Source: Candidatus Saccharimonadia bacterium
GTDB taxonomy: Bacteria; Patescibacteriota; Saccharimonadia; UBA4664
Assembly (NCBI GenBank): GCA_036488585.1
Contig: DASXHH010000007.1
Location: 1 to 57,874 of the forward strand
Direction: 5' to 3'
DNA: 57,874 nucleotides
Shown: in pieces, positions 5,342 to 57,874 of the stretch
Numbering within the stretch: position 1 is the stretch's first letter
Layout: the number at the start of each line of letters is the position of its first letter
Notes under the pieces: model-generated
Database searches by the model: none
What the model was told of the DNA's origin: nothing
Seen by the model: only the letters and a program-made list of their open reading frames with translations
Position numbers and translations under genes: made by a program

Positions 5342-5346
5342 GACTT

Positions 5347-7988: not shown

Positions 7989-8010
7989 AGACAGCCGAGC
8001 AGTCGTCAGC

Positions 8011-8515: not shown

Positions 8516-8521
8516 CGAACC

Positions 8522-8752
8522 ATGAGGCGTGAACATCCCCACAAGAAGCCAGTAAGACGCGGCCGTAACAAGCCTCGAGCGCGATTTCGTAAAACTAATT
8601 ATGCAGAACTCACAGTTGCAGCCCTCGTTCTTTTGATCCTGATCGGAGGGGCGGCCCTCATAAAGATTGGGCTAATAATAGGTGCTGGAATAATTCTCGT
8701 CGCACTGGTTGGTTCCTGTCTCGTTTTATGGCTGAGACGAAGGAATTCGTAG
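8522..8752 (+). CDS. small membrane protein (basic N-terminus, two hydrophobic helices)
   Basis: 76 aa: RRGRNKPRARFRK then LTVAALVLLILIGGAALI and GLIIGAGIILVALVGSCLVLW. The promoter-like element directly upstream supports a real gene. Confidence 0.45.
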   Translation: MRREHPHKKPVRRGRNKPRARFRKTNYAELTVAALVLLILIGGAALIKIGLIIGAGIILVALVGSCLVLWLRRRNS

Positions 8753-8878
8753 TAGAATACTACCGATTTTTTCTGAAATACATTACAATGCACCCATAAC
8801 GAGCCCCCAAGGACAAATTCCCGTTAGGAAGAGTCTCACGACTACTTGGCAGGCTGGCCACTCGCAAGGGTGGCATTT

Positions 8879-9409
8879 CTATTGCAAACGTTTAGACATA
8901 GCCTTCATAAGGACCTTGGTTTTGTCACTGGGTTTATTAGCATGAGCTCCTAACACACCAGCAACCGCATCGGCCACTCGCAGCATCGGGTAAGCTTCGT
9001 CATCTGCGGTTCGCAATCGTTTTGACGACAGTCCTTTATCGCGCAGTACCTTTTTGAGTCTACGTTCATAACTCTTATCTTTACGCCCATCAAGGATTAT
9101 TCGCTGTACGTCCACGCCCTCAGCAGCCGTTATTAAAGTGCTCTCCAGCGCCACACCGAAGTCTCGCAGGGGGTTCTTGCTAAGCTGGTATCTAACTACA
9201 AAATCGCCTTTTACCACAGCTTTCAAAAATGTTTCCCTAACAGGCCACGGCGCTTTTGACCAGTGAAACGACTTAACTTTGGCTTTCGCTTCGGCAGCCA
9301 CTACCAAATCGTTCAGTGGATCCAGTTGCTCGGTCTCAACCAGTATCGCAGCAAATACGCAGACACCACTGGACTTATTGGTACCGGACTCGTCCACGAA
9401 AACATACAT
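8879..9409 (-). CDS. DUF3800 domain protein
   Basis: N-terminus MYVFVDESGT and C-terminal LRVADAVAGVL are the two conserved DUF3800 blocks as I recall them. Confidence 0.7.
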   Translation of the reverse strand: MYVFVDESGTNKSSGVCVFAAILVETEQLDPLNDLVVAAEAKAKVKSFHWSKAPWPVRETFLKAVVKGDFVVRYQLSKNPLRDFGVALESTLITAAEGVDVQRIILDGRKDKSYERRLKKVLRDKGLSSKRLRTADDEAYPMLRVADAVAGVLGAHANKPSDKTKVLMKAMSKRLQ

Positions 9410-9472
9410 GTTGGCAGGATAGTGTTATGCATTGCAGACGTCAAATCAGCTTTAGCGTAAAATAGCCTCACT

Positions 9473-10972
9473 ATGAAGTGGCTAACCAAATCCGACTACC
9501 TTAAATATCTCGTCCACCCAGACTACCTCTGGCTAGCCAAGCATGATAAAGATAAGCTCCCACAGCACTCAGAGAACGACCAGGCCAGATTCGCAGCAGG
9601 GGATGAAGTCGAGTCCTACGCACGCCAGCTCTTCCCGGAGACTATCCTCATCGAACCTCCCAACTTTTTCGATGGCCCCGACGTAACAGCTGCAGCCATG
9701 AAACAGCCGGCAATCACGTCGCTATTCCAAGCGAGCGTCCTCACCGACAACAAGCTCTACGCCGCCGCCGACGTTATCGTCCGCACCCCAGACGGCTGGG
9801 ACCTATATGAAATTAAATCCGGCACCAAAGTCGCAGATAGCCATCTGCACGACCTGGCCTTTCAGTACCTGGTCTTTGCCAAAGCCGGCCATAAAGTCAG
9901 CCGCTGCTTCGTTATGCATATCAATCCCCACTACACCCGCCATGGTGATATTGAACCAAGCCAACTCTTCATGACCGAAGAGGTTACCGACAAAGTTCTG
10001 CCCCTGCTCAAACAAACCGCCAAGAACATTGTCGAAGCCCGCAAAGTCATAGACAGCCCAAACTGCCCCAAGTACGATTTCGATCTCTGCGGCAATCTGT
10101 ACGCCTGGCGTGATATCTATCGCCATCTCCATCCGGACTTGCCCTCTTCCACTCTGCTTAATCTCACCCGCCTCAAGCTCGAACAACTTCTTGAACTCCA
10201 AGGCCTAGGCATCACAGCCATTGCTGAAATCCCTCAGGACTTCAATCTTGGGCCTGAGCAATTGTCCCAAGTTGAAGTCACACGCTCTGGAGCTGCCCGT
10301 CTCCACCCAGACAAGATCACTCACGAACTAGCAAAGCTCGAGTACCCACTCTACTTCCTGGATTACGAAACCTTCTCCAGTGCCATCCCTATGTGGGACG
10401 GCGTCCGCCCGTACCAACAATTGCCCTTCCAATACAGCCTCCATGCCATCCCGTTCCAGGGCGCCAAACTCACCCATTACGAACATCTAGCCCAAGGTAC
10501 CGAGTATCCTGCAGAAAAGCTCCTGGATCACTTGACTAAAGACCTCGGCCCCGAAGGCAGCGTCATCGTCTGGAACAAGAGTTTCGAAATGGGGTGTAAC
10601 GATGCTATGGCCGCCCTCCACCCTAAATACAAAGACTTCCTGGAAGGCGTTAACGCTCGCGTTTATGACCTTATGGAAATATTTGCCAACGGTTACTATG
10701 CTCATCCCGAGTTCATGGGATCAGCCTCGATCAAGAAGGTCCTGCCTGTTCTTGTTCCAGAATTAAGCTATAAAGACTTGGCGATAGGGGAAGGCATGAC
10801 CGCTCAAGTCCAATGGATGAAAGCGGCCCGCGGCATCATGTCTGAGGAAGAAGCCGAGCGCCTGTATGCGCACCTGATCACCTATTGCGGCCAGGACACG
10901 CTAGCCATGGTCAGAATCTTCGAGGTTCTGCAGGCAGTTACATCAGAGACTGCCCCCGCTGCCCAAGCATAA
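9473..10972 (+). CDS. DUF2779 domain protein (N-terminal PD-(D/E)xK-like, C-terminal RNase H-like exonuclease fold)
   Basis: YFLDYETFSSAIPMWDGVRPYQQLPFQYSLH is the DUF2779 hallmark. The N-terminal AADVIVRTPDGWDLYEIKSGTK fits D...E-x-K. Confidence 0.75.
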   Translation: MKWLTKSDYLKYLVHPDYLWLAKHDKDKLPQHSENDQARFAAGDEVESYARQLFPETILIEPPNFFDGPDVTAAAMKQPAITSLFQASVLTDNKLYAAADVIVRTPDGWDLYEIKSGTKVADSHLHDLAFQYLVFAKAGHKVSRCFVMHINPHYTRHGDIEPSQLFMTEEVTDKVLPLLKQTAKNIVEARKVIDSPNCPKYDFDLCGNLYAWRDIYRHLHPDLPSSTLLNLTRLKLEQLLELQGLGITAIAEIPQDFNLGPEQLSQVEVTRSGAARLHPDKITHELAKLEYPLYFLDYETFSSAIPMWDGVRPYQQLPFQYSLHAIPFQGAKLTHYEHLAQGTEYPAEKLLDHLTKDLGPEGSVIVWNKSFEMGCNDAMAALHPKYKDFLEGVNARVYDLMEIFANGYYAHPEFMGSASIKKVLPVLVPELSYKDLAIGEGMTAQVQWMKAARGIMSEEEAERLYAHLITYCGQDTLAMVRIFEVLQAVTSETAPAAQA

Positions 10973-11021
10973 GTACAAACTGGCAACAACCCAGTCTGTC
11001 ACCAAGGTCTACCGAGTGGCG

Positions 11022-11052
11022 AGGGACCGTAATCTTTACGATTACGGTCCCT
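11022..11052. terminator. strong bidirectional hairpin between convergent genes
   Basis: Perfect 13-bp stem AGGGACCGTAATC (11022-11034) / GATTACGGTCCCT (11040-11052) with loop TTTAC, followed by TCGTTT. Confidence 0.7.
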
Positions 11053-11056
11053 TCGT

Positions 11057-11557
11057 TTACCAACTCACCCGAACTATGACCGGGTCTCCTCCGGGGAATA
11101 CGATTTTTCCGCCGGAATGATCACTGCCTGCCGGGGGCTCAACATCATCCTCTGCCGGGACGATGCGAGCATTGAGACCCCGGGCCCTATATTCCTCTGC
11201 TAGATATACAGCAGATGTTGTGGCTGAGATAAACTCGCCATGATCATACACACTACCGCCGTGATAACCCGGCGCCCTGACCTCGATGGGGTTAACCCAG
11301 TGGTCATAGTAACCCTTGGGGCCACTCTCGAGAATGTAGCGGCCATGGCCATCGGCCTCCTGTCTGGCCCATTCCCGGCGTCTGTCTTGCTCTTCTTGGA
11401 GGTACCCTTCGGCCCGAGCCTTGGCTGCGGCCCTGTCTGCCCTCCTCTCTCCGAAGCTGCGACTTCTGGGCGGCTGGGACTGGTACGCGACTGGTGGTGG
11501 CGGTGATGGTGGCTTCATGGCCCGAAGCTCTTCGGGTGTTGGAAAATCGCTCGACAT
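11057..11557 (-). CDS. hypothetical protein with Pro-rich N-terminus
   Basis: 166-aa ORF with TAGGAGG 4 nt upstream of the ATG. No family recognised. Confidence 0.5.
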   Translation of the reverse strand: MSSDFPTPEELRAMKPPSPPPPVAYQSQPPRSRSFGERRADRAAAKARAEGYLQEEQDRRREWARQEADGHGRYILESGPKGYYDHWVNPIEVRAPGYHGGSVYDHGEFISATTSAVYLAEEYRARGLNARIVPAEDDVEPPAGSDHSGGKIVFPGGDPVIVRVSW

Positions 11558-11867
11558 ATCGCCTCCTAAATAGACTCGCCGAGTAAGGCGATTATGTCCT
11601 TAGGTCATAACCCCGTCAACATTCTTAGTCGCCCATGGGTACCATTCCGTGCCCTCAATCTTTCGCACCGTATCAAGCACAAACTTAGGGCAAATTTGTT
11701 CACCCCTTAAATCGACTGAGATACCCCAGGGTGGCTTGCCCGGTCAAGTGATGGGTTAAGAATCAATTCGAGATTCTGCTGGTACTGCTCGTTACTGGGA
11801 TCCAGCTGAAGTGCTTTGTTGATGTCCGCCAATGCCTGGGCGTGGGTACAGGTTTTCACTTTTACTA

Positions 11868-14582
11868 TCACGCTCCATGAACCTCACGTGTCTTCTCACC
11901 CTCAGGCTCCCGCTTAGCCGGACTTTGAATAGTCGTGCTCTGATATACCTGAAATAGCTTTTTCATGTCTTTCTCCACCTCGGCCTTAGCCTTGCCATAC
12001 TGCTTTCGACTCAGCTCCATCACGTAGTCTCTGGTCTCAGCCGAGCGCTTAGCCCGAAGTGGCACTGTTTGTCCGGAAAACGCGTCCTCACTCTCATCAG
12101 CCGTGGTCTTCATAAAGAAGTTATAGGGGCTCAGGTTCACAATATCTCCCTTCTGTACCGCTGGCTCCATGTACGGCAAGATAAAGCCCTCGTCTTCCGG
12201 GCTCGCCTTCAAGCAGATTATGGTATGTGAGTTGCCGGCTACAATCTTTAAGATTGCCTTATCCTCAACCTGGGCAATGTTCTGATGCGAAGCTATTACT
12301 GAAACATGGAACTTCCGGCCCTCACTGGTGATATCGGTAAATTGCCTGGTGGCAAAGTTCTGAAACTCGTCCACGTACAAAAAGAAGTCCCGGCGCTCCT
12401 TTTCCGGAATCTTCGTCCGTTGATAAGCCGCCATCCAAACAAGCGATGTCAGGATCGTCCCGAAGAAATAGCTTTGGTCTTTACCAATGTCGCCCTTACT
12501 GAGGTTCACCAGCAGAATCTTACCCTCGTTCATAATCTCTGCCACCCGTAGGGTGCTCTTTTCCTGTAGCAGTATGTGCCGAGACATTTTGGTGGTTATA
12601 AAGTGCCCCAGCCGGTGGGTGAGTGGGGCAGTGGCATTAGACAACTGCATGCTGCCCATTAGCTTAAACTCCTTCTCCCAAAACTGCCTGAGCACTGGGT
12701 CTTTGAGAGTTCCAGCCACTTCTTGCTGGTACTTCTTATCCGTCAGTAGCCGCTGAATGGTATATAGGCTCGGCTTGGGTAGGTGTAGGGCGGTCAGCGT
12801 GGCATTACGTAAAATATGCTCCATGCGTGGACCCCACTGTTTCTCATCAGCCAACCGCTCGAACACCGACAATACTATGCTCGTTATCCAGTCACGCCTG
12901 TCATCCTCGTCCGTAAACTCTACGCCCGGATCGAGTAAGTTGAGCCCCAGTGGGTATTCCCGGTCTGATGGGTCAAACACAATCACGTCTTGCTTGCGAT
13001 GCTCCGGCACTACCTCGAGTAGCTCCCTAAACATATCGCCGTGCGGATCCAGTACCGCCAGGCCCTTGCCGTTGACCATATCTTGGTAGATCGAGCTCGC
13101 AAGTAGGGTGGTTTTGCCGGTCCCGGTCTTGCCAATCACGTAGGTATGTTTCTGGCGCTGCGCTACAGTTAGTCCAATCGGCTGCTCCTCGCCACCATGC
13201 TTATTTACGCCCACTATCACATCCAACTTGGCCTCCGTGTGCTTAATCGACAGCGGGGCCGGCAGTTCCTGGGTTCGGCTCTTCACCAAGCCCTCGGTCT
13301 TGGTCAGATCAGTATTAGGGAAATGGTACAGATCGGATAGCTCTGAACTACTTAAAATCGTTTGCTGGCTGAAGTGGTGGGTGGAAAGCCTCCGGGCCTT
13401 AAAATCAGTCAAGTGCCGATTGCCGGGTGCAAGTAGGGGAACATCCTGGCGTATACCAAATCGCTGGTAAGACGACCTGAAAGGTTCAAATGCCCCAAAT
13501 AAGCCCCGGATCCTATCATTAATCACGTCCCTGTCTGGGGATGCCACCAGTAGTCGGATGGTTACCTCAAACAGCGGCTGGTCCAGCTTGCTCTTAATCA
13601 TCTTCCCCAGTTCCTCCTCATACGGGTTGGTGGGGGAGTGGGTATCGACCCGGGTCTTCATATAATCCGGCAAGTCATGATCCTGTGAGAACATGCTGTA
13701 TAAAATCTCTCCCACCCCGGCTACCAGCCGGACCATCGCCGCCACGAACCACAGCGGCGGATACCATACGCACCACCATGCCCATCCAACCGGCGTACGC
13801 TGTCTTATAAGCTGGTCCGATGCCGCCTTGTTCAAGGCAATGGTCTCTCGGAGCTTCGCAGTGTGCCTCGTCACCCGGTGGTGCGTCATCCCAAACACCG
13901 GCACGGCCACCACCTGTAACGAGGCCAGTTCATCTGGTGCCAGTTTCGTCATCTGCCCGGTCAGGTAGGCGATAGGGTCATGCTCGGCCAGGGCTTTGTG
14001 GTCTTGCAGCGGTAGTACAAAGTCCTGGGCCAGCCTCAGCTCCAGCACTCCAATAGCTGTCTTGGACAATGCGCTCATATAATCTTCCACCCGCTTCACC
14101 TTTATACCCGGTAGGTACGACAACAAGTTGCGGCTGACAAATTCCACCGCCTCTTCCGGAACCATTAGTACATAGCGGATACCTTCGTTGTTGGTCCCGA
14201 CCAGCTCCAGCGAGTACGGCTTCTTACGAGCCACCAGCCGGTTCCATAGTCCTCGGTATCCCACCAGCGTCCGAAGTAATATATGCAGCTGCTCCGTCGC
14301 AAACGCCGATTTAGTGGTATCAGCTGGGAACCGCAATTCCAAAAACACCTGCGGGGATTCCGGCTCGCCCACGCCGAAGGCTCTAAGTATGAAACTCAAA
14401 GAAGCCGGCGTATATAAAATGACCTTGGTAAGTAGCACTGCTAGCACATATACAACCACCATTTCGGCCAGTAAGGCGCCAATAATAATCACCAGCGTCT
14501 CACCCGGCCCCATATGATGAGACACGGTATAGCGGGCCGGGCTATTGATAAGAGTATCTATAAAGTGTCGGATGAGTTGCAT
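11868..14582 (-). CDS. type IV secretion coupling protein-like ATPase (VirD4/TraD/TraG family) with large membrane-anchored N-terminal region
   Basis: Walker A is VIGKTGTGKTT and Walker B is DFFLYVDEFQNFAT, then SEGRKFHVSVIASHQNIAQ (TraD/TraG C-terminal type). TM helices lie near aa 30-75 and 265-290. Confidence 0.75.
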   Translation of the reverse strand: MQLIRHFIDTLINSPARYTVSHHMGPGETLVIIIGALLAEMVVVYVLAVLLTKVILYTPASLSFILRAFGVGEPESPQVFLELRFPADTTKSAFATEQLHILLRTLVGYRGLWNRLVARKKPYSLELVGTNNEGIRYVLMVPEEAVEFVSRNLLSYLPGIKVKRVEDYMSALSKTAIGVLELRLAQDFVLPLQDHKALAEHDPIAYLTGQMTKLAPDELASLQVVAVPVFGMTHHRVTRHTAKLRETIALNKAASDQLIRQRTPVGWAWWCVWYPPLWFVAAMVRLVAGVGEILYSMFSQDHDLPDYMKTRVDTHSPTNPYEEELGKMIKSKLDQPLFEVTIRLLVASPDRDVINDRIRGLFGAFEPFRSSYQRFGIRQDVPLLAPGNRHLTDFKARRLSTHHFSQQTILSSSELSDLYHFPNTDLTKTEGLVKSRTQELPAPLSIKHTEAKLDVIVGVNKHGGEEQPIGLTVAQRQKHTYVIGKTGTGKTTLLASSIYQDMVNGKGLAVLDPHGDMFRELLEVVPEHRKQDVIVFDPSDREYPLGLNLLDPGVEFTDEDDRRDWITSIVLSVFERLADEKQWGPRMEHILRNATLTALHLPKPSLYTIQRLLTDKKYQQEVAGTLKDPVLRQFWEKEFKLMGSMQLSNATAPLTHRLGHFITTKMSRHILLQEKSTLRVAEIMNEGKILLVNLSKGDIGKDQSYFFGTILTSLVWMAAYQRTKIPEKERRDFFLYVDEFQNFATRQFTDITSEGRKFHVSVIASHQNIAQVEDKAILKIVAGNSHTIICLKASPEDEGFILPYMEPAVQKGDIVNLSPYNFFMKTTADESEDAFSGQTVPLRAKRSAETRDYVMELSRKQYGKAKAEVEKDMKKLFQVYQSTTIQSPAKREPEGEKTREVHGA

Positions 14583-14767
14583 TGCATAGGAAGGGTTAGT
14601 TTAACCACCCTCCGATGCAAGCAGCGTACAATCCGTTGCTATCTGTAGCGAAATACTATCATCTGCACCTAGTTAGCGCCAACCCTAGATCTCAGCCCCT
14701 CCCGACAATAATTGAGTGCCTAGCGGCGAGGTCACAATCGAGACGAAATATTTCGAAGCTCGCTGAG

Positions 14768-38681: not shown

Positions 38682-38975
38682 ATGGACGTCTTTTTCGCTC
38701 TCGCCGAACCCACCCGCCGCAGCATCATCGAGATGCTGGCAGAACGTGGCCAGCTATCAGCCACTGCCATCGCCGGACGATTTCACTCTACGCCTTCAGC
38801 CATTTCGCAACACCTCAAGGTCTTGCGCGAGGCCCGGCTAGTTTCGGTCGAGAAACGCAACCAACAACGCCTGTACTCACTCAATACTGAGGCCGTAAAA
38901 CAGCTGGAAGACTGGGCCCGGCAGATGTCGGCTCGTTACGATGCGCTTGAAGCCATGATAGATAACAATAATTAA
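38682..38975 (+). CDS. ArsR/SmtB-family transcriptional regulator
   Basis: FFALAEPTRRSIIEMLAERGQLSATAIAGRFHSTPSAISQHLKVLREARLV. Confidence 0.9.
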   Translation: MDVFFALAEPTRRSIIEMLAERGQLSATAIAGRFHSTPSAISQHLKVLREARLVSVEKRNQQRLYSLNTEAVKQLEDWARQMSARYDALEAMIDNNN

Positions 38976-38986
38976 GGAGGCACGAC

Positions 38987-39451
38987 ATGCCTGAGACCGA
39001 AACCAATTACCAATTCGAAATCGACCGCGACAAACTCGAGGTACGGATTAGCCGCATCTTCCGCACCACCCCGGAGCGCATGTGGCAGGCCCACACCGAG
39101 CCTAAACTGCTCATGCGCTGGTGGACCAACACCAAAATCGACAAGCTCGACCTCAAGCCCGGTGGCGAATGGCGGTTTGTCAGTAATGCGAATGGCCAGG
39201 ACTTTACCGTCGGCGGTCAGTTCAAGGAGCTCGAGAAACCGAAAAAAATCGTCCGCACCTTTGAATTCGCCCCCGGCCACTCAATTCTCGAAACCACCAC
39301 CTTCGAGGCACTCCCCAACGGTACCACGAGGCAACTAGCCGTCTCCAAGTTTGCCAACCTCGACGACCTCAACCAAATGAGCAAGGGCATGCAGTACGGT
39401 GCCGAACCGGGAATGGAGCTACTAGCCCAGGTAGCCGAGTCCGAAGATTAA
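38987..39451 (+). CDS. SRPBCC (AHSA1/START-like) domain protein
   Basis: Size and the blocks ERMWQAHTEPKLLMRWW...GGEWRF fit the family. It forms the classic ArsR-SRPBCC pair. AAGGAGG lies upstream. Confidence 0.85.
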   Translation: MPETETNYQFEIDRDKLEVRISRIFRTTPERMWQAHTEPKLLMRWWTNTKIDKLDLKPGGEWRFVSNANGQDFTVGGQFKELEKPKKIVRTFEFAPGHSILETTTFEALPNGTTRQLAVSKFANLDDLNQMSKGMQYGAEPGMELLAQVAESED

Positions 39452-39469
39452 CCCCCGAAGGAGTACAAA

Positions 39470-39847
39470 ATGCCGACAGCAGATAAACTAACCATGTTCC
39501 AGATGGCCGTGGGCGACATGCCCAAAGCCAAGGAGTTTTACTCTGACCACCTCGGTCTCAAGGTCGCCAAGGATTACCGCCAAGACGAGGACCACTGGTG
39601 GGTCTCGCTGGACGGAGCCCAGGGCGGCGCCACCATCACTCTCACAACCTACAAGAGCAATATGAAGCCCGGCAACCTCGTGCTCTATTTCTCAACCTCC
39701 GATGTGACGGCCAACCACCAAGCGCTAGCAAAGCAGGGCGTGAAGGTCGGCGACATCCAAAACGACCTCTATGGACCAGGCTCGGGCGTCAAGTTTTTCC
39801 AGGTCGAAGACCCCGACCACAACCTCGTTCACGTCTGGCAGGCATAA
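39470..39847 (+). CDS. VOC (glyoxalase/bleomycin-resistance) family protein
   Basis: 125 aa with DMPKAKEFYSDHLGLKV...FQVEDPDHNLVHV. GAAGGAG lies upstream. Confidence 0.85.
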   Translation: MPTADKLTMFQMAVGDMPKAKEFYSDHLGLKVAKDYRQDEDHWWVSLDGAQGGATITLTTYKSNMKPGNLVLYFSTSDVTANHQALAKQGVKVGDIQNDLYGPGSGVKFFQVEDPDHNLVHVWQA

Positions 39848-39870
39848 AGCACAAGGCCCATAATTAACAC

Positions 39871-42108
39871 ATGCAAGAATACATCGAAATCCGCGGTGCC
39901 CGCGAAAATAATCTAAAAGATATTAGCCTCAAAATCCCTAAGCGCAAGATCACCATCTTTACGGGAGTGTCCGGCTCTGGCAAGTCCAGTCTTGTGTTCG
40001 ACACCATCGCCGCCGAAGCCCAGCGCCTTCTGAACGAAAATTTCAGCATGTTCGTCCGCAACTTCTTGCCTCGCATTAGCCAGCCGGACGCCGACGAAAT
40101 CAAGAACCTGGGCATGGCGGTGATAGTGGACCAAAAACCCCTCGGTGGCGGCGCGCACTCCACCGTTGGCACGGTCACCGATATCTCAACCGCCCTACGC
40201 CTCATGTTCTCTCGCTTTGGTACGCCGCATGTTGGTAATGCCAACATGTTCTCGTTCAATGATCCGGCCGGCATGTGCCCAGAGTGTCATGGCCAAGGCC
40301 AAAAGCTGGACCTCGACCTAGAACTCGCCTTCGATATGAATAAGTCCATCAACGACGGTGCCCTAAAGCTACCGGAGTATACCGGCAAAAACGCCTGGGG
40401 CTTGGAGATAGTCAAACATTCCAAGCTCTTCGACAACGACAAGCCGCTCAAGGATTTCACCGACCAGGAACTTAACGATCTCTTTCACTCCAAGCCCATC
40501 CCCACCGACACGATGCAGGGCGTGAAGTTAAAATTTGAAGGCGTAGTCGATAAGTTCGTGCGCAAGTATCTTGTCGAGTTCGACTACCGGACCATGTCGG
40601 ATCGCACCCAAAAAACCATCGGTCCATTCGTTACCATGGGCCCCTGCCACCTTTGCCATGGCGCCCGCATTAATCAAAAAGCCTTGGCCTGCAAGATCGA
40701 CGGGTTCAACATCGCCGACCTTACTGCCATGCAGGTAGACAAGCTACTATCAATCGTAAGCAAGCTTGAGACTACCCAAAACCACGCCCTCATCAAAACC
40801 GTCCATGAACGTCTCACCAATCTAGTCGAAATCGGTCTGGGCTATCTCACTCTCGACCGACCCACCGACACCCTCTCAGGTGGCGAGTCCCAGCGAGTCA
40901 AGTTAGTAAAGCACCTCAACGGTGCCCTGGTCGATTGCATGTATATCTTCGACGAGCCCAGCGTCGGCCTCCACCCCCGCGATGTTCACCGGCTCAACGA
41001 GCTTCTAGCCAAGCTCCGCGATCAAGGCAACACCGTGCTAGTAGTGGAGCACGACCCCGACGTCATCAAGGCCGCCGATCACGTGGTAGATGTTGGCCCC
41101 AAGGCTGGCGCGGCCGGAGGCAAGATCGTCTTCGAGGGTACCTACCCAGAGCTCCTCAAGGCCAAGACCGTTACCGGCGAGCATCTCAAGGATCGGACGC
41201 CCATAAAGCCCCAGTTCCGTTCACCTTCCGGAAAGCTCTCCATCACAGGCGCTCACGCCAATAACCTTAAGCACATTACCGTCGACATCCCCACCGGTAT
41301 CTTTACCGTCATTACCGGCGTGGCCGGCTCGGGCAAGAGCTCGCTCATCCACCAGGTCTTTCTCAAACAGCACCCCGATGCCATAGTGGTCGACCAAACG
41401 GCCATCGGCACCTCCAACCGCTCCAACCCGGCCACCTACATTGGCATCTTTGACCCCATTCGCAAAGGCTTTGCTAAAGCGAACCAAGTTGACGCCGGGT
41501 TGTTCAGTTTCAACTCCAAAGGAGCCTGCGATAACTGTAACGGCGCCGGTTTTCTTACCCAAAACCTCGGCTTTCTCGACGACGCCAAGACCCCCTGCGA
41601 TGTCTGCGGTGGTAAACGTTTTAAAGATGAGGTTCTGGGATATAAATACCATGGCAAAACCATTACCGAGGTACTCGACCTTACTATGGCCGAAGCTCAA
41701 GACTTCTTCGACCTTAAAGAAATCGGCCCCAGCCTGCAGGCCCTCAATGATGTCGGCCTCGAATACCTCACTCTAGGCCAACCGCTCAGCACCCTGTCTG
41801 GTGGCGAATGTCAACGCATCAAGTTGGCCCAGCAACTACACAAGAAGGGGAGTGTGTACGTGCTCGACGAACCCACCACCGGACTGCACATCTCCGATAC
41901 CGCGCGCCTGCACCAGCTCATCGACCGGCTAGTCGATGACGGCAACACCGTCATCACCATTGAGCACAACACCGATGTCATCCGACGCGCCGACTGGATC
42001 ATAGATCTCGGCCCCGAAGGCGGCGATAAGGGCGGACAAATTATGTTTGAAGGCACACCAGCCGAGTTACTACTATCCAAGCAGGCCCTGATCGCCCATT
42101 ATTTGTGA
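39871..42108 (+). CDS. UvrA-like ABC ATPase, short class (UvrA2/DrrC-like, lacks the UvrB-binding insert)
   Basis: Contains IEIRGARENNLKDISLKIP, GVSGSGKSSLVFDTI, LSGGESQRVKL, GVAGSGKSSL, LSGGECQRIKLA and Cys4 fingers (CPECHGQG, CHLCHG, CDNCNGAG...CDVCGG). It is 745 aa, against about 940 for canonical UvrA. Confidence 0.9.
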   Translation: MQEYIEIRGARENNLKDISLKIPKRKITIFTGVSGSGKSSLVFDTIAAEAQRLLNENFSMFVRNFLPRISQPDADEIKNLGMAVIVDQKPLGGGAHSTVGTVTDISTALRLMFSRFGTPHVGNANMFSFNDPAGMCPECHGQGQKLDLDLELAFDMNKSINDGALKLPEYTGKNAWGLEIVKHSKLFDNDKPLKDFTDQELNDLFHSKPIPTDTMQGVKLKFEGVVDKFVRKYLVEFDYRTMSDRTQKTIGPFVTMGPCHLCHGARINQKALACKIDGFNIADLTAMQVDKLLSIVSKLETTQNHALIKTVHERLTNLVEIGLGYLTLDRPTDTLSGGESQRVKLVKHLNGALVDCMYIFDEPSVGLHPRDVHRLNELLAKLRDQGNTVLVVEHDPDVIKAADHVVDVGPKAGAAGGKIVFEGTYPELLKAKTVTGEHLKDRTPIKPQFRSPSGKLSITGAHANNLKHITVDIPTGIFTVITGVAGSGKSSLIHQVFLKQHPDAIVVDQTAIGTSNRSNPATYIGIFDPIRKGFAKANQVDAGLFSFNSKGACDNCNGAGFLTQNLGFLDDAKTPCDVCGGKRFKDEVLGYKYHGKTITEVLDLTMAEAQDFFDLKEIGPSLQALNDVGLEYLTLGQPLSTLSGGECQRIKLAQQLHKKGSVYVLDEPTTGLHISDTARLHQLIDRLVDDGNTVITIEHNTDVIRRADWIIDLGPEGGDKGGQIMFEGTPAELLLSKQALIAHYL

Positions 42109-42144
42109 TGAAAATCGAACTCTGCTCCTACAGTATATAAATTG

Positions 42145-42173
42145 TTGCAATTTATATACATAAGTGTTATTAT
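42145..42173 (+). promoter_or_regulatory. near-consensus promoter of island ORF 1
   Basis: TTGCAA (42145-42150), 17 nt, TGtTATTAT (-10 at 42168-42173), in a 60-nt line that is only 23% GC. Confidence 0.6.
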
Positions 42174-42209
42174 AACTAAACCCATCAACCGCTCGAAAGA
42201 AGGAATGTG

Positions 42210-42731
42210 ATGGACGTACCCGAACTCCCACGGCTGCAACCGCGACCGGTGGGCCAAGAGGCCCTGGAATTGGTGCGGGCAGCTCGCACCATCGCCGATC
42301 GGTACTTCGAGGTCTGCCGGACAACTCCCGGCGCGGATTTCGACGACTGGCGGCCAATGGTCCCGATGATCAACTACCACGGCTACGAAGGTGCACTAAC
42401 TCGCTCGGGACTCTTCGTGGGCTGCGATGTCGACGGCAGTTACTGGCGGCCGCACGTGGTCGTGACACCCTGGGGCCAGTGGGTCTTCGTCGGCTCCGGC
42501 AGAGAAGGCGCTGGCCTCCAGTTCCGCAATAACCCCACCTTCATGAACGGCCTTGCGCTTGGTCAGGTCTACATCTCGCCGAGCAACCAACGCGCTCACA
42601 TGTACCCCGTGCTGTCGATAGACGGCACGCAGCTACCTGATCCGCAGCTTTACTGCTGGACTGCGCGCATCCGTGCCATGGAGCACGGCCCCCTCGAAGA
42701 TGAGTGGCGAGAACTGTTCGCCGCCGCCTAG
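42210..42731 (+). CDS. hypothetical protein (GC-rich island ORF 1)
   Basis: 173-174 aa with GAAGGAAT 5 nt upstream of ATG 42210 (GTG 42207 also in frame). Strong G/C third-position bias. No family recognised. Confidence 0.55.
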   Translation: MDVPELPRLQPRPVGQEALELVRAARTIADRYFEVCRTTPGADFDDWRPMVPMINYHGYEGALTRSGLFVGCDVDGSYWRPHVVVTPWGQWVFVGSGREGAGLQFRNNPTFMNGLALGQVYISPSNQRAHMYPVLSIDGTQLPDPQLYCWTARIRAMEHGPLEDEWRELFAAA

Positions 42732-42746
42732 CTTCCACTCGCCCGT

Positions 42747-42767
42747 CCCGGCTGCAACAACGCCGGG
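42747..42767 (+). terminator. GC hairpin after island ORF 1
   Basis: CCCGGC (42747-42752) / GCCGGG (42762-42767) with a 9-nt loop. No U-tract. Confidence 0.4.
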
Positions 42768-42798
42768 CTCCGGGCCCTACCCGAGCTTTCAAATCCGA

Positions 42799-42886
42799 TT
42801 TGAAGTCTCAGGCAGGTATAAACGACCGAAACCTAATATCGTTCATCATGGCCAATATCTCCCTCGCATACTGAGTTCGAAACTCG
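42799..42886 (+). repeat. copy A of a ~85-nt repeated 3' element
   Basis: By hand it aligns with 43429-43515 at roughly two-thirds identity, with colinear perfect blocks TTTGAA, ACCTAAT, TCGTTCAT, ATCTCC and TTCGAA. Confidence 0.45.
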
Positions 42887-42906
42887 AATAGTAGTTCGCC
42901 CCAGTA

Positions 42907-42935
42907 TTGTAATTATTTTATATTTGTGCTATAAT
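42907..42935 (+). promoter_or_regulatory. consensus promoter of island ORF 2
   Basis: TTGTAA (42907-42912), 17 nt, TGcTATAAT (-10 at 42930-42935). Confidence 0.65.
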
Positions 42936-43005
42936 AATCTAAGTGTTGCCCAGATGGTAACCTCCAAGCCGACGCAATTGGACCTCCACTGAGGAAGGAA
43001 TATCG

Positions 43006-43350
43006 ATGCGCGCGAACCTTGACCCAAGAGCCGCCACGGCCGCATCAATCGCATTCGACTCGGCACTACCCTACGTCTTCGCGCCAGGCGCGGAGATTCT
43101 TGAGGTTGTAGTCAAATGGGACGGGCGTGTTCACCCGACCCTCCGCACGTTCTCAGTTACCGCCAAGGTGCAGGCACCGGGGGCGCCTGAAGCTGTGGAG
43201 GTTTCGTCGGAGATTTCCGTCAACCTAACCTCCGACGGCTGGACCAACTGCCTCTTCACGTGGTGGGGTCTAAAAGACGACCCCCAGCCTCATGTCCGGT
43301 ACTACGTCAACCTCAATGCGGAGCCTGAACCCACGTTCAGAATCGCTTAA
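43006..43350 (+). CDS. hypothetical protein (GC-rich island ORF 2)
   Basis: 114 aa with GAGGAAGGAAT 5 nt upstream of the ATG. No family recognised. Confidence 0.5.
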   Translation: MRANLDPRAATAASIAFDSALPYVFAPGAEILEVVVKWDGRVHPTLRTFSVTAKVQAPGAPEAVEVSSEISVNLTSDGWTNCLFTWWGLKDDPQPHVRYYVNLNAEPEPTFRIA

Positions 43351-43382
43351 GCCGTGAGGCGGTTCGTCAGGTCAGGGACTCA

Positions 43383-43404
43383 CTCCCCCGCGAACGCGGG
43401 GGAG
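43383..43404 (+). terminator. GC hairpin after island ORF 2
   Basis: CTCCCCCGCG-AA-CGCGGGGGAG, a perfect 22-nt palindrome. No U-tract. Confidence 0.5.
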
Positions 43405-43428
43405 CCCACCCCAAGATTTTAAGCATTC

Positions 43429-43515
43429 TTTGAAATCTTAGGCTGGGCTAATGACTGAACGAACCTAATGTCGTTCATAATGCGACTAATCTCCGCACCC
43501 ACATTTCGAACCCGG
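43429..43515 (+). repeat. copy B of the ~85-nt repeated 3' element
   Basis: See copy A. It contains the hairpin TGAACGA-N8-TCGTTCA. Confidence 0.45.
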
Positions 43516-43585
43516 TTTAGGAAAGAGATTCTTTCGATAGCGAATAAAATTAATTTTAAGTCTTTAACTCCTATTAACTGAAGGA

Positions 43586-43606
43586 CCCCCGGCTGGCTGC
43601 CGGGGG
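43586..43606 (-). terminator. GC hairpin downstream of island ORF 3
   Basis: CCCCCGGC (43586-43593) / GCCGGGGG (43599-43606) with a 5-nt loop, 84 nt past the stop at 43690. Confidence 0.45.
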
Positions 43607-43689
43607 GTATTGGGGGACCGGGCAGCTTTGCACTGCCACCTACTTATGTAGGGCACTCACTTGAGCTACTGGCCCTCGTTGTGTATGGG

Positions 43690-44613
43690 CTAGAGGTTGA
43701 TCGCGCGGAGACGCCGCTCCAGATCGGCGGCGATAGTCAGGACGTAATCCTCGTGCTCGCTGCCAACGATCGGGAGACCGGCGTAGCCGCCGGCGCCGAA
43801 GATGGGAGACAGGTCGAGAATCTCCGGATTGACCGATCCGACCACCGTGAAGCGGAAGGCCGGGGCGTGAACGGTTCCAGCCAACTCCTTGGCGTAAGTG
43901 CTCGTGTCGCGCTTGAGCGACACGAGCATGGTCCAGGGCTCGCCCTCCTTCTGGTGCCAGCCGGAGTGGAAGCTCCCCACGGTGTCATCATTGACGTCGA
44001 GGACCACGCAGGCCAGAGAGTCGAGGAACATCGGCACTTTGCCGCCCCTGTGCGATCGCGTTTCCCCTGGGTAGAGGAAGCCGCCACAGATGGTGGTGGC
44101 GAGTTGCGCCGCCGTGAACCGGGAGAGGCGGGTGCCGTGCAAGGCCTGCACCACCGGCCTCAGGTCCAGCTCCACTATCTCGCCTGCTCGCGCGGACGCG
44201 GGAAGTGGGAACTGGGCTTCGAGCCACAGCGCTCGGAGCGACTGCTGTTGCTGGCCGTAATAGGCGGCGAGATCGTCCATTACGCAGACGTAATCCGTAG
44301 TAGAGACGTGGTACACCCCGTTGAGGCGGCGAACTGTCGGCATCCAATCGAACGGCGCATCGTAGCTTTGAGACCAGTAGTCGCCGCTATCGAGAGCCGA
44401 CTCGATGGCGCCGAGGACTTCGTCGATGTGAGCTTGGAGCATTTCGTGCAGCTCCGCATGGGACTTCAGCTCGCTCAGGGTGATCCGGCCATCCTTGAGG
44501 TTGACTGAGTCCCAGTTGACGCGCCCGACGGCGGCGCGCGCGAGGACAAGCTTGAGCTCGTCAAGATCAGGAACGGTGAAACCGTGGCGGTACTCATGCC
44601 GCTCGACATCCAT
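43690..44613 (-). CDS. hypothetical protein (GC-rich island ORF 3)
   Basis: 307 aa with GGAGAGAGG 6 nt upstream of the ATG. Sampled 60-nt lines are 57-73% GC with very strong G/C third positions. No family recognised. Confidence 0.6.
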   Translation of the reverse strand: MDVERHEYRHGFTVPDLDELKLVLARAAVGRVNWDSVNLKDGRITLSELKSHAELHEMLQAHIDEVLGAIESALDSGDYWSQSYDAPFDWMPTVRRLNGVYHVSTTDYVCVMDDLAAYYGQQQQSLRALWLEAQFPLPASARAGEIVELDLRPVVQALHGTRLSRFTAAQLATTICGGFLYPGETRSHRGGKVPMFLDSLACVVLDVNDDTVGSFHSGWHQKEGEPWTMLVSLKRDTSTYAKELAGTVHAPAFRFTVVGSVNPEILDLSPIFGAGGYAGLPIVGSEHEDYVLTIAADLERRLRAINL

Positions 44614-44681
44614 CGTAAACCTCTCTCCAAATCAGGGTTCGCCTGGCTATGCCAGGAAATATCCATTGTGGATAGTTATAT

Positions 44682-44710
44682 ATTAAAGCATAAAGTTACG
44701 ATACTTGCAA
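44682..44710 (-). promoter_or_regulatory. promoter of island ORF 3
   Basis: The minus strand reads TTGCAA (44710-44705), 17 nt, TGcTTTAAT (-10 at 44687-44682). Confidence 0.55.
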
Positions 44711-44836
44711 GATGCTGAAAAGTTGGAAAAAGCTTTCTTGAAAATGGATAACAAAATAACGGCTTTGACGCGCTATTTAAGCATAAGTGCTTTGGGGCCC
44801 CAGTGCGACCAACTACCATTATTGCCGAGGATAAGC

Positions 44837-44865
44837 GTGACAATTCTGGCCAGATGTGTTAAGAT
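44837..44865 (+). promoter_or_regulatory. candidate typA promoter
   Basis: GTGACA (44837-44842), 17 nt, TGtTAAGAT (-10 at 44860-44865), followed by a 58-nt structured leader. Confidence 0.5.
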
Positions 44866-44923
44866 AATTTAAACGCGCCGACGGCGTAACCTTACCCGCG
44901 GCGTTTTAAATTGCGCACACACT

Positions 44924-46765
44924 ATGGACCAAACTCTCACCACCACCGAACACATTCGCAACGTGGCCATCATCGCCCACGTCGACCATGGCAAAACCAC
45001 CCTCGTGGATGGCCTGCTTAAGCAAGCAAAAACTTTCCGCGACAACCAGGCCGAAATGCAGCAAACTACCATCCTTGATACGGGCGACCTGGAGCGAGAG
45101 CGGGGGATTACCATCTCCGCTAAAACCACCGCAGTCACCTACGATGGCTACAAGATCAACATCATCGACACTCCCGGACACGCCGACTTCTCCGGCGAAG
45201 TGGAGCGCACCCTGGGCATGGCCGATGGCTGCCTGCTGATCGTTGATGCCCAGGAAGGCCCCATGCCCCAGACCAAATTTGTGCTTTCAAAAGCCCTCGG
45301 GCTCGGCCTTAAGCCGGTAGTCGTAATCAACAAGGTCGACAAGCGCGACGCCCGCGGCGACGAAGTCATTACCGAAATCGAGCATCTGTTCCTGGACTTA
45401 GCGGTCTCAGATGACCAGCTCGAGTTCCCGGTGTACTACTGTGTCGGCCGCGATGGCAAGGCCTGGGACCACCAACCGGATGCCGCCGAGATCTCCGCCG
45501 CCGGCGACCTCACGCCCATCTTTAGTGCCATCATCAATGACATTCCCGCCCCCCGTGTTGAACCGGGCGGCCCCTTCCAGATGCTCGTAACTTCGCTGGC
45601 CTGGGACTCGTACCAGGGCAAATACGCCATCGGCCGCATCCAACGAGGTAGCATTCAAGCCGGACAGGCACTCAGCTACATCCATAGAGACGGCACCGTC
45701 TCAAACGCCAAGGCCGACAAATTGTTCGTGGCTCAAGGCCTCGACCGAGTGGAAGTAACAGAGGCCTTCGCCGGAGACATCGTCTGGATTACCGGCGTCG
45801 GTGCAGCCAACATTGGCGGCAGTATCACCGACCCTGGCACCCCCGAGGCTCTGCCCGTTATGGAAATCGAAGCCCCTACCCTCCAGATTCAAATCGGCCC
45901 CAACACCAGCCCCTTCGCCGGCCGCGAAGGCAAGTTCACCACCAGCCGCCAAATCGGCGCCCGTCTCGAGCGCGAGCTCGAAACCAATGTTGGTCTGCGC
46001 GTGGAAGACCGCGGTACCGGCTTCTTAGTAAGTGGCCGTGGCGAGCTCCACCTCTCGGTACTCATCGAGACCCTGCGTCGCGAAGGCTTCGAAATGGAGG
46101 TCGGTCGGCCGCAAGTGGTCACAAAAGAGCAGGATGGTCGCACCGTTGAGCCGATCGAAGAGCTCACCATCGAGGTACCCGAGGAACACGTCGGCGCCAT
46201 CACTTCCGAACTCGGCCGCCGCCGCGCCAACCTGGTAACCATGGAAGCCACCACCAAAGCCACTACCCGGCTCATCTATACCTTGCCCACTCGCGCCCTG
46301 CTGGGTCTACGCAACATTCTCCTCACCGCCACCAAGGGTACCGCCACCGTCAACAGCCTACTCACCGGCTACGAACCACTCGGCGCCCCGTTGCAGCAGC
46401 TGCGCAATGGCGTGCTCATTTCCGCCGAAACCGGCACCGCCACCACTTACAGTCTCAAAACCGTCGAGGAGCGCGGCACCGCTTACATCGGCCCCGGCAC
46501 CAAGGTTTACGAAGGCATGATTATCGGCCTCAACCGCCGCGGCGACGATATGGAGATCAACGTCACCAAAGAAAAGAAGCTCACCAACGTCCGGGCTTCT
46601 GCCACCGACATGACCACCCAGCTCACCCCATTTACCCAGCTCACACTTGAAGAAGCCCTCGACTTTATCGAAAACGATGAGCTGCTCGAGACTACTCCCG
46701 AGAACCTACGCATGCGCAAGCGATACCTGCTTCCCCACGAGCGCAAGCGTAATCGCCAGTCCTAA
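44924..46765 (+). CDS. typA: translational GTPase TypA/BipA
   Basis: Contains IRNVAIIAHVDHGKTTLVDGLL, IIDTPGHADF and NKVD, with length and C-terminal domain typical of BipA. Confidence 0.95.
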   Translation: MDQTLTTTEHIRNVAIIAHVDHGKTTLVDGLLKQAKTFRDNQAEMQQTTILDTGDLERERGITISAKTTAVTYDGYKINIIDTPGHADFSGEVERTLGMADGCLLIVDAQEGPMPQTKFVLSKALGLGLKPVVVINKVDKRDARGDEVITEIEHLFLDLAVSDDQLEFPVYYCVGRDGKAWDHQPDAAEISAAGDLTPIFSAIINDIPAPRVEPGGPFQMLVTSLAWDSYQGKYAIGRIQRGSIQAGQALSYIHRDGTVSNAKADKLFVAQGLDRVEVTEAFAGDIVWITGVGAANIGGSITDPGTPEALPVMEIEAPTLQIQIGPNTSPFAGREGKFTTSRQIGARLERELETNVGLRVEDRGTGFLVSGRGELHLSVLIETLRREGFEMEVGRPQVVTKEQDGRTVEPIEELTIEVPEEHVGAITSELGRRRANLVTMEATTKATTRLIYTLPTRALLGLRNILLTATKGTATVNSLLTGYEPLGAPLQQLRNGVLISAETGTATTYSLKTVEERGTAYIGPGTKVYEGMIIGLNRRGDDMEINVTKEKKLTNVRASATDMTTQLTPFTQLTLEEALDFIENDELLETTPENLRMRKRYLLPHERKRNRQS

Positions 46766-56002: not shown

Positions 56003-56665
56003 TTACGGAGTTACGGTGAAGTCTCCAATCACCTCAGCATGGAGATGATCGTGGAACATGTACGTACCCGACTCGTTTAGAGTAAGCGTCTGCTGCTCCT
56101 GCACACTATTAAGCGCCAGGGCGGCCACCCCTCCGTACGGCTCATGGTTCTCATGGGGACCGAAAGCAATTTCACGCGGCACGTTGTCCTCGTTCATAAA
56201 CATGATCGTGTCACACCTGTGAGCGTCGGTGTGGTAAGGGCTAACAGCGCCGTTCTTAATCACAACCATATGCATTTCGGAATTTCCCACACAAGCGCCG
56301 GTCGCCTTACCGCCGACCTGGCCAATGCCCTCGTCTTGGGCCAATTTCAACTCCGTTTCGGTCGGCGTCATGTTCTCATGCAGGTGGTACATGATCCAAG
56401 TTGTCCCCACCGTCACCACAAAAATTCCACCAACCGTAATGGCAAGGAACTTAGATTGCCAATGTGGTGATTGTTCCCGCCCCAAGTGCAAAAAGAAGAA
56501 AACCTGGACAGCTGCCTGCAAGAGCGCAAATGTCAGTATTGTTCCAAGCAGCACGTTTCCCGTCACTGTATGAGTGACCGCCAAGTAGTACGGTATCAGC
56601 GTAAAGACCAGCGACAGGATAAATCCAATCACATAATTCTGGATTGTACCGTGCTCTTTTTTCAT
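56003..56665 (-). CDS. cyoD: cytochrome o ubiquinol oxidase subunit IV fused to a C-terminal cupredoxin-like domain
   Basis: The first ~110 aa (HGTIQNYVIGFILSLVFTLIPYYL, 3 TM) match CyoD/QoxD. Another ~110 aa follow. ATG 56665 overlaps the cyoC stop as ATGA. Confidence 0.8.
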   Translation of the reverse strand: MKKEHGTIQNYVIGFILSLVFTLIPYYLAVTHTVTGNVLLGTILTFALLQAAVQVFFFLHLGREQSPHWQSKFLAITVGGIFVVTVGTTWIMYHLHENMTPTETELKLAQDEGIGQVGGKATGACVGNSEMHMVVIKNGAVSPYHTDAHRCDTIMFMNEDNVPREIAFGPHENHEPYGGVAALALNSVQEQQTLTLNESGTYMFHDHLHAEVIGDFTVTP

Positions 56666-57303
56666 ACGAGTGCTCGCAAGTAAACGATGGTGAAGATAAA
56701 GATCCAAACGATATCAAGGAAATGCCAGAACAAACTGAGCAAGCTCAGTTTTCGCACTAGACTGTCTTTGAGTCCACGCACCGACACCACGATGAGCGTA
56801 GTCCCCATCCAGAGCAGCCCCGAGGTAATGTGCAGACCGTGTGTGCCGACGAGTACGAAGAACGAAGACAAGAAGCCGTTACTCTGTAACGTATGCCCCT
56901 CGTGGAAAAACTTCGTAAATTCGCTAATCTCCAGCCCCAAGAAGGCGAGACCCATCAAAAAGGTCATGCCAAACCATACCAGCACTTGGTTCTTGTTGCC
57001 CTGCCGCGCCCTGTACATGCCGATGCCACAAGTAAAGCTACTGGTGAGTAGTAGCAACGTCTCAGTCAGCGCTACTGGTTGACTAAAGAGCTCTCGTCCC
57101 GATTCTCCGGCACCAGTATTGCCATGTAGCACTGAATAGGCCGCAAACAGGATCGAAAACATCAACAAGTCGGTCATTAAATAGACCCAGAAACCAAACG
57201 TGGCCCGGTCGCTGGCTGCTTCTTCGTGCTCGCGCAGCTTAGCCTCGTCTATTTTGGGGGCAGCCTGCTTTTCCGGCCCCAGTTTAGCTACAGCTTCCGC
57301 CAT
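56662..57303 (-). CDS. cyoC: cytochrome o ubiquinol oxidase subunit III
   Basis: Contains FGFWVYLMTDLLMFSILFAAY, GTHGLHITSGLLWM and WHFLDIVWIFIFT. ATG 57303 has GAGGAGGA 4 nt upstream. The longest ORF starts at 57360. Confidence 0.9.
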   Translation of the reverse strand: MAEAVAKLGPEKQAAPKIDEAKLREHEEAASDRATFGFWVYLMTDLLMFSILFAAYSVLHGNTGAGESGRELFSQPVALTETLLLLTSSFTCGIGMYRARQGNKNQVLVWFGMTFLMGLAFLGLEISEFTKFFHEGHTLQSNGFLSSFFVLVGTHGLHITSGLLWMGTTLIVVSVRGLKDSLVRKLSLLSLFWHFLDIVWIFIFTIVYLRALV

Positions 57304-57874
57304 TGCTTCCTCCTCACCACATCCAGGCCATACTGGATCAGCCACTTCATCAGTTCCCATACACCCATGTCTTTATCGGGATCGGCTTCAACAGCAGAGG
57401 GAGCCTTAGGTACGTGTCTCAGCCTCTCTTCCTCCATCTTCTTCACCGTTTCCGCTGGAATGGTGTACTCGGTATCTTCGGTGAAGGCCTTTACGCCGAT
57501 ACTCACAATGATCGCTACCAAGCTCACAATCCAAAGCCAGGTAATCTCCCAGACGAACCCCAAGCCGGCCAGAAAGGCGAACAAAGAAATCCAGATGCCG
57601 GCGCTGGTGTTCTTAACGACATGAATATCTTCGTACTGGGGTTTCCCCAGGCCTTTTTGCTTCATCTCCCAAAAGGCGTCTCGAGTAGTGACGGTCGGTG
57701 TCATGGTGATGTTGTAATCCGGCGGGGGAGAGGGAACCGCCCACTCCAGCGACCGACCGTTCCAAGGATCACCCGTCGTGTCGGCCAGACGTTTGCGCTC
57801 AATGATGCTGGCCAAAATCTGAGCCAGCTGGAGAATTACACCGATCATAATGGTAACCCCCCCGATGAGCATAG
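57288..57874 (-). CDS. cyoB: cytochrome o ubiquinol oxidase subunit I, C-terminal part (5' end outside window)
   Basis: The frame is open to the window edge. GDPWNGRSLEWAVPSPPP and the following TM helix are typical of the CyoB C-terminus. Confidence 0.9.
   Translation of the reverse strand, partial: MLIGGVTIMIGVILQLAQILASIIERKRLADTTGDPWNGRSLEWAVPSPPPDYNITMTPTVTTRDAFWEMKQKGLGKPQYEDIHVVKNTSAGIWISLFAFLAGLGFVWEITWLWIVSLVAIIVSIGVKAFTEDTEYTIPAETVKKMEEERLRHVPKAPSAVEADPDKDMGVWELMKWLIQYGLDVVRRKQWRKL

Follow-up and report, generated by a model that had tools for sequence, protein, structure and literature searches.

A three-gene accessory islet of a Saccharimonadia bacterium whose genes share a 3′ repeat and resemble small movable cassettes

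Within a 57,874-nt stretch of DNA from Candidatus Saccharimonadia bacterium (contig DASXHH010000007.1 of assembly GCA_036488585.1; hereafter the window), we analysed the region at positions 42109–44923, which carries three open reading frames (ORFs) flanked by a UvrA-like gene and typA. These make up a small accessory islet of three single-gene modules that are independent of one another, every module being laid out as a strong promoter with an extended −10 element, a Shine–Dalgarno (SD) sequence, an orphan coding sequence (CDS), one or two GC hairpins and a core repeat. The core repeat is 75–95 nt long, and one copy lies behind each of the three unrelated ORFs; this shared 3′ module is new beyond an earlier, first-pass annotation of the same DNA. 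As an explanation, we tentatively put first that the modules are single-gene cassettes without an integrase, each with its own promoter and all with a common att-like 3′ repeat, and that recombination at a tRNA-like site exchanges them. The main rival, lineage-specific genes with a duplicated intergenic segment, we regard as possible yet doubtful.

The typA gene of the window is 82–86% identical to typA of Saccharimonadia metagenome-assembled genomes (MAGs), and the organism is therefore assigned to the Saccharibacteria/candidate phyla radiation (CPR) lineage. The locus is also present in a JGI contig (3 mismatches over 20.9 kb) and in an identical Logan contig; the same arrangement is thus found in three assemblies in total and is therefore not an assembly artefact. 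Comparisons were made with typA-centred loci, up to 10 kb per side, from 80 related Saccharimonadia species; repeats were searched for in 83 fetched loci (~1.2 Mb, mostly Saccharimonadia DNA). A homologue of the third ORF was found on a separate 9.7-kb metagenomic contig, L003.

A core repeat behind three unrelated genes

The three ORFs lie where the first-pass annotation had placed them, ORF1 at 42210–42731 (+; 173 amino acids (aa), pI 5.3, no transmembrane segment), ORF2 at 43006–43350 (+; 114 aa, pI 5.0) and ORF3 at 43690–44613 (−; 307 aa). All three products are acidic (pI 5.0–5.3) and free of hydrophobic segments, and are predicted to be soluble and cytoplasmic. As that annotation had also held, they belong to no recognizable family: Pfam, NCBIfam, PADLOC and PHROGs gave no match, PDB sequence searches returned noise only, and phage and plasmid collections held no match to the ORFs (tblastn, blastn). 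ORF1 and ORF2 are orphans that matched only themselves among 5.8 billion proteins in a k-mer-prefiltered search, beside which library hidden Markov models were used. The same 5.8 billion proteins contain two relatives of ORF3, P0002 (68% identity) and P0003 (50%), and a HMMER profile of the ORF3 family searched against 1.84 billion representatives added one remote relative, P0008 (302 aa, 29% identity over about 200 residues, hhalign probability 96%). Three further candidates (P0006, P0007 and P0009) were rejected as long repeat proteins whose E-values were summed over many weak stretches; for P0006 the hhalign probability was just 8%. Comparison of ORF3 with its homologue on L003 yielded a dN/dS of 0.25, and ORF3 is therefore a real gene under purifying selection. 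AlphaFold2 models of ORF3 (pLDDT 44.7, from a three-sequence alignment) and ORF1 (pLDDT 36.3, from the single sequence) were too poor for Foldseek. No counterpart of any of the three ORFs occurs in the typA-centred loci of the 80 related species. The earlier description of the genes as accessory cargo thus stands, in that they are accessory and lineage-restricted, ORF1 and ORF2 having no relatives and ORF3 three; for the roles of the proteins, in conflict or in host interaction, we can offer only a guess.

At about 85 nt, the core repeat follows the consensus AACCTaAtaTCgTTCaTaAT-N7-ATCTCC-N10-GrGTTCGAAAC-N11-TAGyTCGCCCCA. The copy behind ORF1 (W1, 42820–42905, +) is complete and reads AACCTAAT..ATCTCC..GAGTTCGAAAC..TAGTTCGCCCCA, and that behind ORF2 (W2, 43453–43523, +) is truncated after TTCGAAC. 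The third copy (W3, 43488–43566, −) is part of the ORF3 unit; its tail and that of W2 overlap at the palindromic TTCGAA near 43508. Homology between the 3′ flanks of ORF1 and ORF2 extends over about 110 nt (local score 50 versus 16 ± 2 in shuffles, 0/500), and the flank of ORF1 matches that of the ORF3 homologue on L003 with a local score of 56 (shuffles 16.6 ± 2.2, 0/500). The 21-mer AACCTAATRTCGTTCATMATG is present twice, with 0 occurrences expected by chance. An nhmmer search with a profile of the core revealed no more copies, either in the 55 kb of the window outside the islet or in the 83 loci. A dispersed repeat of the miniature inverted-repeat transposable element (MITE) or repetitive extragenic palindrome (REP) type was rejected, the copies in the DNA searched being confined to the three cassettes and L003 and no terminal inverted repeats having been reported.

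The end of the core comprises a T-loop-like string, GGGTTCGAA, and an acceptor-end-like string, CTCGCCCCA. Such a pair, a T-loop-like motif together with a 3′-acceptor-end-like motif, characterizes the att sites of tRNA-targeting elements, in keeping with the preferences of integrases for sublocations within tRNA genes. A tRNA-like fold of the core itself was considered and rejected for want of a complementary T-stem, of any covariance-model match and of a predicted consensus structure. RNAalifold places 0 pairs in the core, its folds as RNA or as single-stranded DNA (ssDNA; both strands) reach z = −0.7 to −2.0 without an element-spanning hairpin, and Rfam has no match at E ≤ 5 over 42000–45000, with only noise at E ≤ 10 on the 3′ untranslated regions (3′UTRs). 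Because there is no consensus structure and no Rfam match, a role of the core at the DNA level is more likely than one at the RNA level.

Upstream of the cores, a GC hairpin is found after all three ORFs, in keeping with the first-pass annotation. The one after ORF1 lies at 42747–42767 (+; CCCGGC...GCCGGG) and is followed by a second hairpin at 42776–42816 (+). Its counterpart after ORF2 (43383–43404, +; CTCCCCCGC...GCGGGGGAG), in a 3′ flank with a fold z of −6.2, is likewise followed by a second hairpin (43405–43447, +), which is homologous to the second hairpin of ORF1 and shares its architecture. At the 3′ end of the ORF3 transcript, a GC hairpin at 43586–43607 (CCCCCGG..CCGGGGGG) is conserved in L003. 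A terminator scan found no T-tract terminators, and the 3′ signals are GC hairpins without a U-run. The 3′UTR of ORF3 additionally forms a predicted four-way junction of an outer stem and three hairpins (43613–43677, −), whose L003 counterpart (8792–8857) differs by 2 compensatory and 2 half-compensatory changes with 0 broken pairs. This junction holds GTAGCTCA, as at tRNA positions 7–14, and is not recognized by the Rfam tRNA model.

At their 5′ ends, all three genes have a promoter-like site of their own with a TG-extended −10 element, as had been noticed from the sequence earlier: TTGCAA-17-TATTAT for ORF1 (42145–42173, +), TTGTAA-17-TATAAT for ORF2 (42907–42935, +) and TTGCAA-17-TTTAAT for ORF3 (44682–44710, −), each with the upstream TG. 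The shared SD string GAAGGAAT was also confirmed, upstream of both ORF1 (42199–42206, +) and ORF2 (42994–43001, +), where it was read from the sequence. The strict pattern TTGNNN-N14-15-TGNTWNWWT matches only 4 times in 58 kb (both strands), and 3 of these 4 matches stand at the three ORFs. On L003, the promoter of ORF3, its 5′UTR hairpin (44641–44655, −; CCTGGC-N3-GCCAGG) and its 3′UTR are conserved along with the gene. The strict promoter being rare in the window and the ORF3 signals conserved with the gene elsewhere, the signals are not locally styled, as had been proposed, and therefore belong to the cassettes. In the 5′UTR of ORF3 (window 44614–44680, −; L003 7795–7860), a second stem pairs AACCC with the SD region, which suggests possible translational control.

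The ORF3 unit beside a tRNA-His gene

The ORF3 unit, 1.3 kb long, recurs as a whole on L003, where the ORF3 homologue lies directly 3′ of a tRNA-His(GTG) gene (7594–7670, +). The alignment of L003 with the reverse complement of the window starts at the last tRNA bases, GCCCCA, and continues into the flank as AAGCAcTTAT. The corresponding boundary string of the window unit, GCCCCAAAGCACTTAT (44784–44799, −), is colinear with the tRNA-His 3′ end and its downstream flank in L003. From there the alignment spans the promoter, 5′UTR, CDS, 3′UTR and hairpin, and it ends at GGGTTCGAAAyGTG in the core. Within the unit, nucleotide identity reaches 75% in the CDS, against 68% and 71% in its 5′ and 3′ flanks, and it falls to 44–46% directly outside. 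The homology breakpoints are sharp, one coinciding with the tRNA-end-like sequence and the other with the core TTCGAA. On L003 the string CTCGCCCCAAAGCAATTAT, comprising the tRNA-His 3′ end and flank, is repeated at the end of the core (8978–8996); this 19-nt repeat contains one gap and one mismatch, and its score was reached by 1 of 2000 shuffles.

Relatives of ORF3 occupy three other genomic contexts, one of which adjoins tRNA-His with a flanking direct repeat, while P0003 and P0008 occupy the two further, unrelated contexts. P0008 is located in a block of 0.60–0.62 GC that adjoins DNA of 0.38–0.51 GC.

Several side observations concern these contigs. P0008 is preceded by a string of ~27 nt, ACACCCGTTGGGCAACTCATGCGGAAC..., which is common to L085 (180–230) and L086 (340–390). 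In L085 its first ~21 nt presumably continue a glmS-like N-terminal coding fragment (GHTRWATH; read by eye), and in L086 what precedes the string is another gene with another promoter. This points either to chimeric assembly at a repeat or to an att-like remnant of glmS. The L003 segment 6843–9678 consists of unannotated genes interleaved with tRNAs, in the order tRNA-Pro(−), a 157-aa orphan, a hairpin, tRNA-His(+), the ORF3 homologue, the core, a promoter and a final orphan (at least 177 aa) cut off by the contig end. The neighbouring orphans on L003 have no similarity to ORF1–3. Short "tRNA-His-end" motifs just after the stop codons of ORF1 and ORF2 were dropped as indistinguishable from chance, and blast matches that appeared to place tRNA-His beside typA in relatives proved to be generic tRNA 5′ similarity (Ile, Ala, Thr and other tRNAs).

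Readings of the islet

Judged by these features, the ORF3 unit looks mobile and all three ORFs look like small movable cassettes. On this reading, site-specific recombination at the core would pass on the modules whole, the recombinase would be supplied in trans by a gene elsewhere in the genome, and successive insertions or inversions would have produced the present array with its tandem and tail-to-tail copies. A wider proposal, which we consider unlikely, is that Saccharimonadia possess an undescribed system of gene capture and exchange, in which integrase-less single-gene cassettes, each with its own promoter, structured UTRs and a common att-like repeat of ~90 nt derived from the 3′ end of tRNA-His, would be mobilized in trans by a chromosomal recombinase and accrete into tandem or inverted arrays. 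If it existed, such a system would be functionally analogous to the integron and mechanistically distinct from it. CPR bacteria have tiny genomes with few recognized mobile elements, and little is understood of how they acquire and shuffle accessory genes. Cassettes marked by a defined boundary repeat would offer a concrete way to their flexible gene pool and to the recombinase behind it, and would single out as candidates for host interaction or conflict three to four new protein families that are apparently exchanged between lineages; if the repeat were a mere local duplication, the locus would be another set of hypothetical genes.

Several results weigh against exchange of cassettes at the core. 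Just four core copies are known, on two contigs, and a core-pattern scan of the metagenome collection gave a single match (L084), which lies inside an AT-rich coding region and was rejected as due to chance. The 3′ strand of the T-stem is not preserved in the core, the tRNA-end-like string at 44784–44799 is not significant alone in 58 kb (score 27 versus 23 ± 2 in shuffles), and short tRNA-like motifs such as TCACTCGCCCCA are not enriched but occur at chance level. ARAGORN found no tRNA gene in the 58 kb of the window. There is no recombinase or integrase among the Pfam-scanned window ORFs, in the precomputed table for L001 or in the 9.7 kb of L003. Neither an empty site nor an excised form was found, exact-protein look-ups of the flanking genes having returned the same contig only. 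Finally, composition gives no sign of recent import into the genome.

On this last point the first-pass annotation had proposed the opposite, a GC-rich island of foreign composition. Its hand counts were accurate for the spacer 42121–42180 (0.23 GC) and the 60-nt lines of ORF3 (0.57–0.73), and erred for typA, which was put at about 53% GC and has 0.60 GC overall with a GC3 of 0.73; the next gene after typA is similar (0.63 GC, GC3 0.76). The GC content of the whole window is 54.1%, and the region 42109–44923 (0.568) does not contrast with the DNA to its left (0.542) and right (0.587). GC3 is 0.75, 0.69 and 0.81 in ORF1, ORF2 and ORF3 versus a mean of 0.68 ± 0.057 in the genes of the right half of the window; ORF3 alone is the window maximum, about 2.3 s.d. 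above those genes. Karlin codon bias against the rest of the window gave z = 1.4, 2.5 and 4.4 for ORF1, ORF2 and ORF3, and larger values for the neighbours typA (z = 9.3) and the UvrA-like gene (z = 8.2). GC content and codon usage of the three ORFs are thus typical of the window rather than foreign; the three genes look coding and host-adapted, and the region is not a compositional island.

The window-typical composition and codon usage would be expected of ordinary lineage-specific hypothetical genes that were inherited vertically in a heavily rearranged, accessory-rich region, an account we judge possible but doubtful. Here the 3′ repeat would be a duplicated intergenic regulatory or terminator segment without a role in mobility, and ORF3 would have been relocated by ordinary rearrangement or homologous recombination. 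Consistent with this account, CPR genomes commonly hold many unannotated genes, no recombinase is nearby, the typA neighbourhood as a whole is rearranged relative to relatives, and the att-like similarities are short and in some cases not significant. It does not readily explain why three unrelated genes should each be followed by a repeat that occurs neither in the rest of the window (55 kb) nor in 1.2 Mb of related DNA, why the boundaries of the ORF3 unit are sharp and coincide with a tRNA 3′ end and the core TTCGAA, or why on L003 the unit is flanked by the tRNA end as a direct repeat. In yet another account, ORF1 and/or ORF2 would be no more than frames left open by chance where GC-rich DNA lies between regulatory or RNA elements, as neither has a homologue that could show conservation, ORF2 has a weak coding score (0.037 bit per codon in six-frame codon log-odds) and the single-sequence AlphaFold2 model of ORF1 is unstructured by its confidence (pLDDT 36). 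This is very improbable, given that the annotated frame was clearly the best of six for all three ORFs (codon log-odds trained on window genes), ORF1 and ORF2 show the GC1 > GC2 < GC3 pattern typical of coding sequence, both were called independently by the JGI gene caller, and each has a correctly spaced promoter and the identical SD upstream.

The self-contained promoter–gene–hairpin architecture is also that of morons, the autonomous promoter–gene–terminator units typical of phage accessory genes, and the islet could be moron-like cargo left by a decayed prophage or an integrative or conjugative element. A mobile/defence block at the left end of the window (with relaxase-like, coupling-protein-like, OLD-family and restriction–modification genes) and the position of the remote relative P0008 in a GC-rich block within lower-GC DNA would fit such an origin. 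It is nevertheless improbable: no phage or conjugation genes lie within about 27 kb of the islet, phage context and homologues are absent (neither PHROGs nor the phage and plasmid searches gave a match, and IMG/VR scans were negative for the core repeat, the ORF3 family and a 19-mer of the ORF3 3′UTR), and a common 3′ repeat is not a moron feature. Integron cassettes, or a cluster of attC sites lacking an integrase (CALIN), would likewise present an array of short, mostly orphan genes with a family-specific repeat behind each and with content that varies between genomes. Here, however, there is no IntI or other integrase domain among the Pfam-scanned ORFs of the window; a regular-expression scan of 41.5–45.5 kb found no RYYYAAC...GTTRRRY pair in any spacer, the sole occurrence lying inside ORF2; attC core sites are lacking from the repeat, which forms no hairpin either (z as above); and every cassette brings its own strong promoter, one of them in inverted, convergent orientation. 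Failing every testable feature, the integron/attC reading is effectively refuted.

Among described systems, cassettes exchanged at the core would resemble tRNA-targeting islands, including integrase-less cis-mobilizable elements: on L003 the ORF3 unit has tRNA-His immediately upstream and a tRNA-end repeat as its boundary, and the core carries T-loop-like and acceptor-end-like strings. The tandem modules are also what would be expected from accretion at att sites, if the site were regenerated with each insertion. Unlike such islands, the units are tiny (0.8–1.3 kb, one gene each) and have no integrase in or near them, no tRNA gene adjoins the array of the window, the repeat copies are degenerate, and the mobility of the units is putative. 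The islet also resembles the strain-specific islets of hypothetical genes in CPR bacteria/Saccharibacteria in its taxon, its small, soluble, unannotated proteins and its lack of synteny with relatives; it differs from them in having a defined, repeated boundary element and a cassette common to two contigs.

Neighbouring genes and other features of the window

The islet had been described as wedged between conserved housekeeping genes, which the comparison does not support. None of the 80 related typA loci is syntenic with the window, and in none of them does typA have the UvrA-like gene or Band_7 beside it. The eight closest relatives have typA neighbours in common with one another, and the window contains none of these. 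Because the typA neighbours differ in relatives, the junction is not a conserved housekeeping junction. The UvrA paralogue (745 aa) passes TIGR00630 (762.6 bits versus a cut-off of 729.8) while being about 180 residues short, and it belongs to a cluster at 38682–42108 in which an ArsR/SmtB regulator, an SRPBCC (AHSA1) protein, a glyoxalase-fold protein and the UvrA paralogue all have one orientation; this cluster looks like toxin or drug self-resistance rather than housekeeping repair. On the other side of the islet, the typA leader contains an inverted repeat, AAACGCGCCG...CGGCGTTT (44872–44908, +), just downstream of a promoter-like site at 44837–44865.

The left end of the window (1–14600) is a mobile-element/defence-type block encoding a Replic_Relax-like protein, DUF3768, an OLD-family AAA_15+TOPRIM nuclease, an EcoRI-type adenine methylase, GmrSD_N+HNH, DUF2130, DUF3800, DUF2779 and a HerA/TrwB-like ATPase. 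Inside this block, at 4–8 kb, lies the true compositional outlier of the window (GC 0.44–0.48). An Rfam DUF3800-II RNA at 8796–8859 (+; 62 bits, above the gathering score) is located just beyond the 3′ end of the DUF3800 gene (8879–9409, −), on the opposite strand. Between 18060 and 27712 we found a cluster of glycan-active or glycan-binding genes comprising two GH16 proteins, a 791-aa triple ricin-B lectin protein, a GH5 cellulase and an MFS transporter. At 56003–57360 (−), this CPR genome carries cytochrome oxidase subunit III- and IV-like genes (COX3, COX4_pro).

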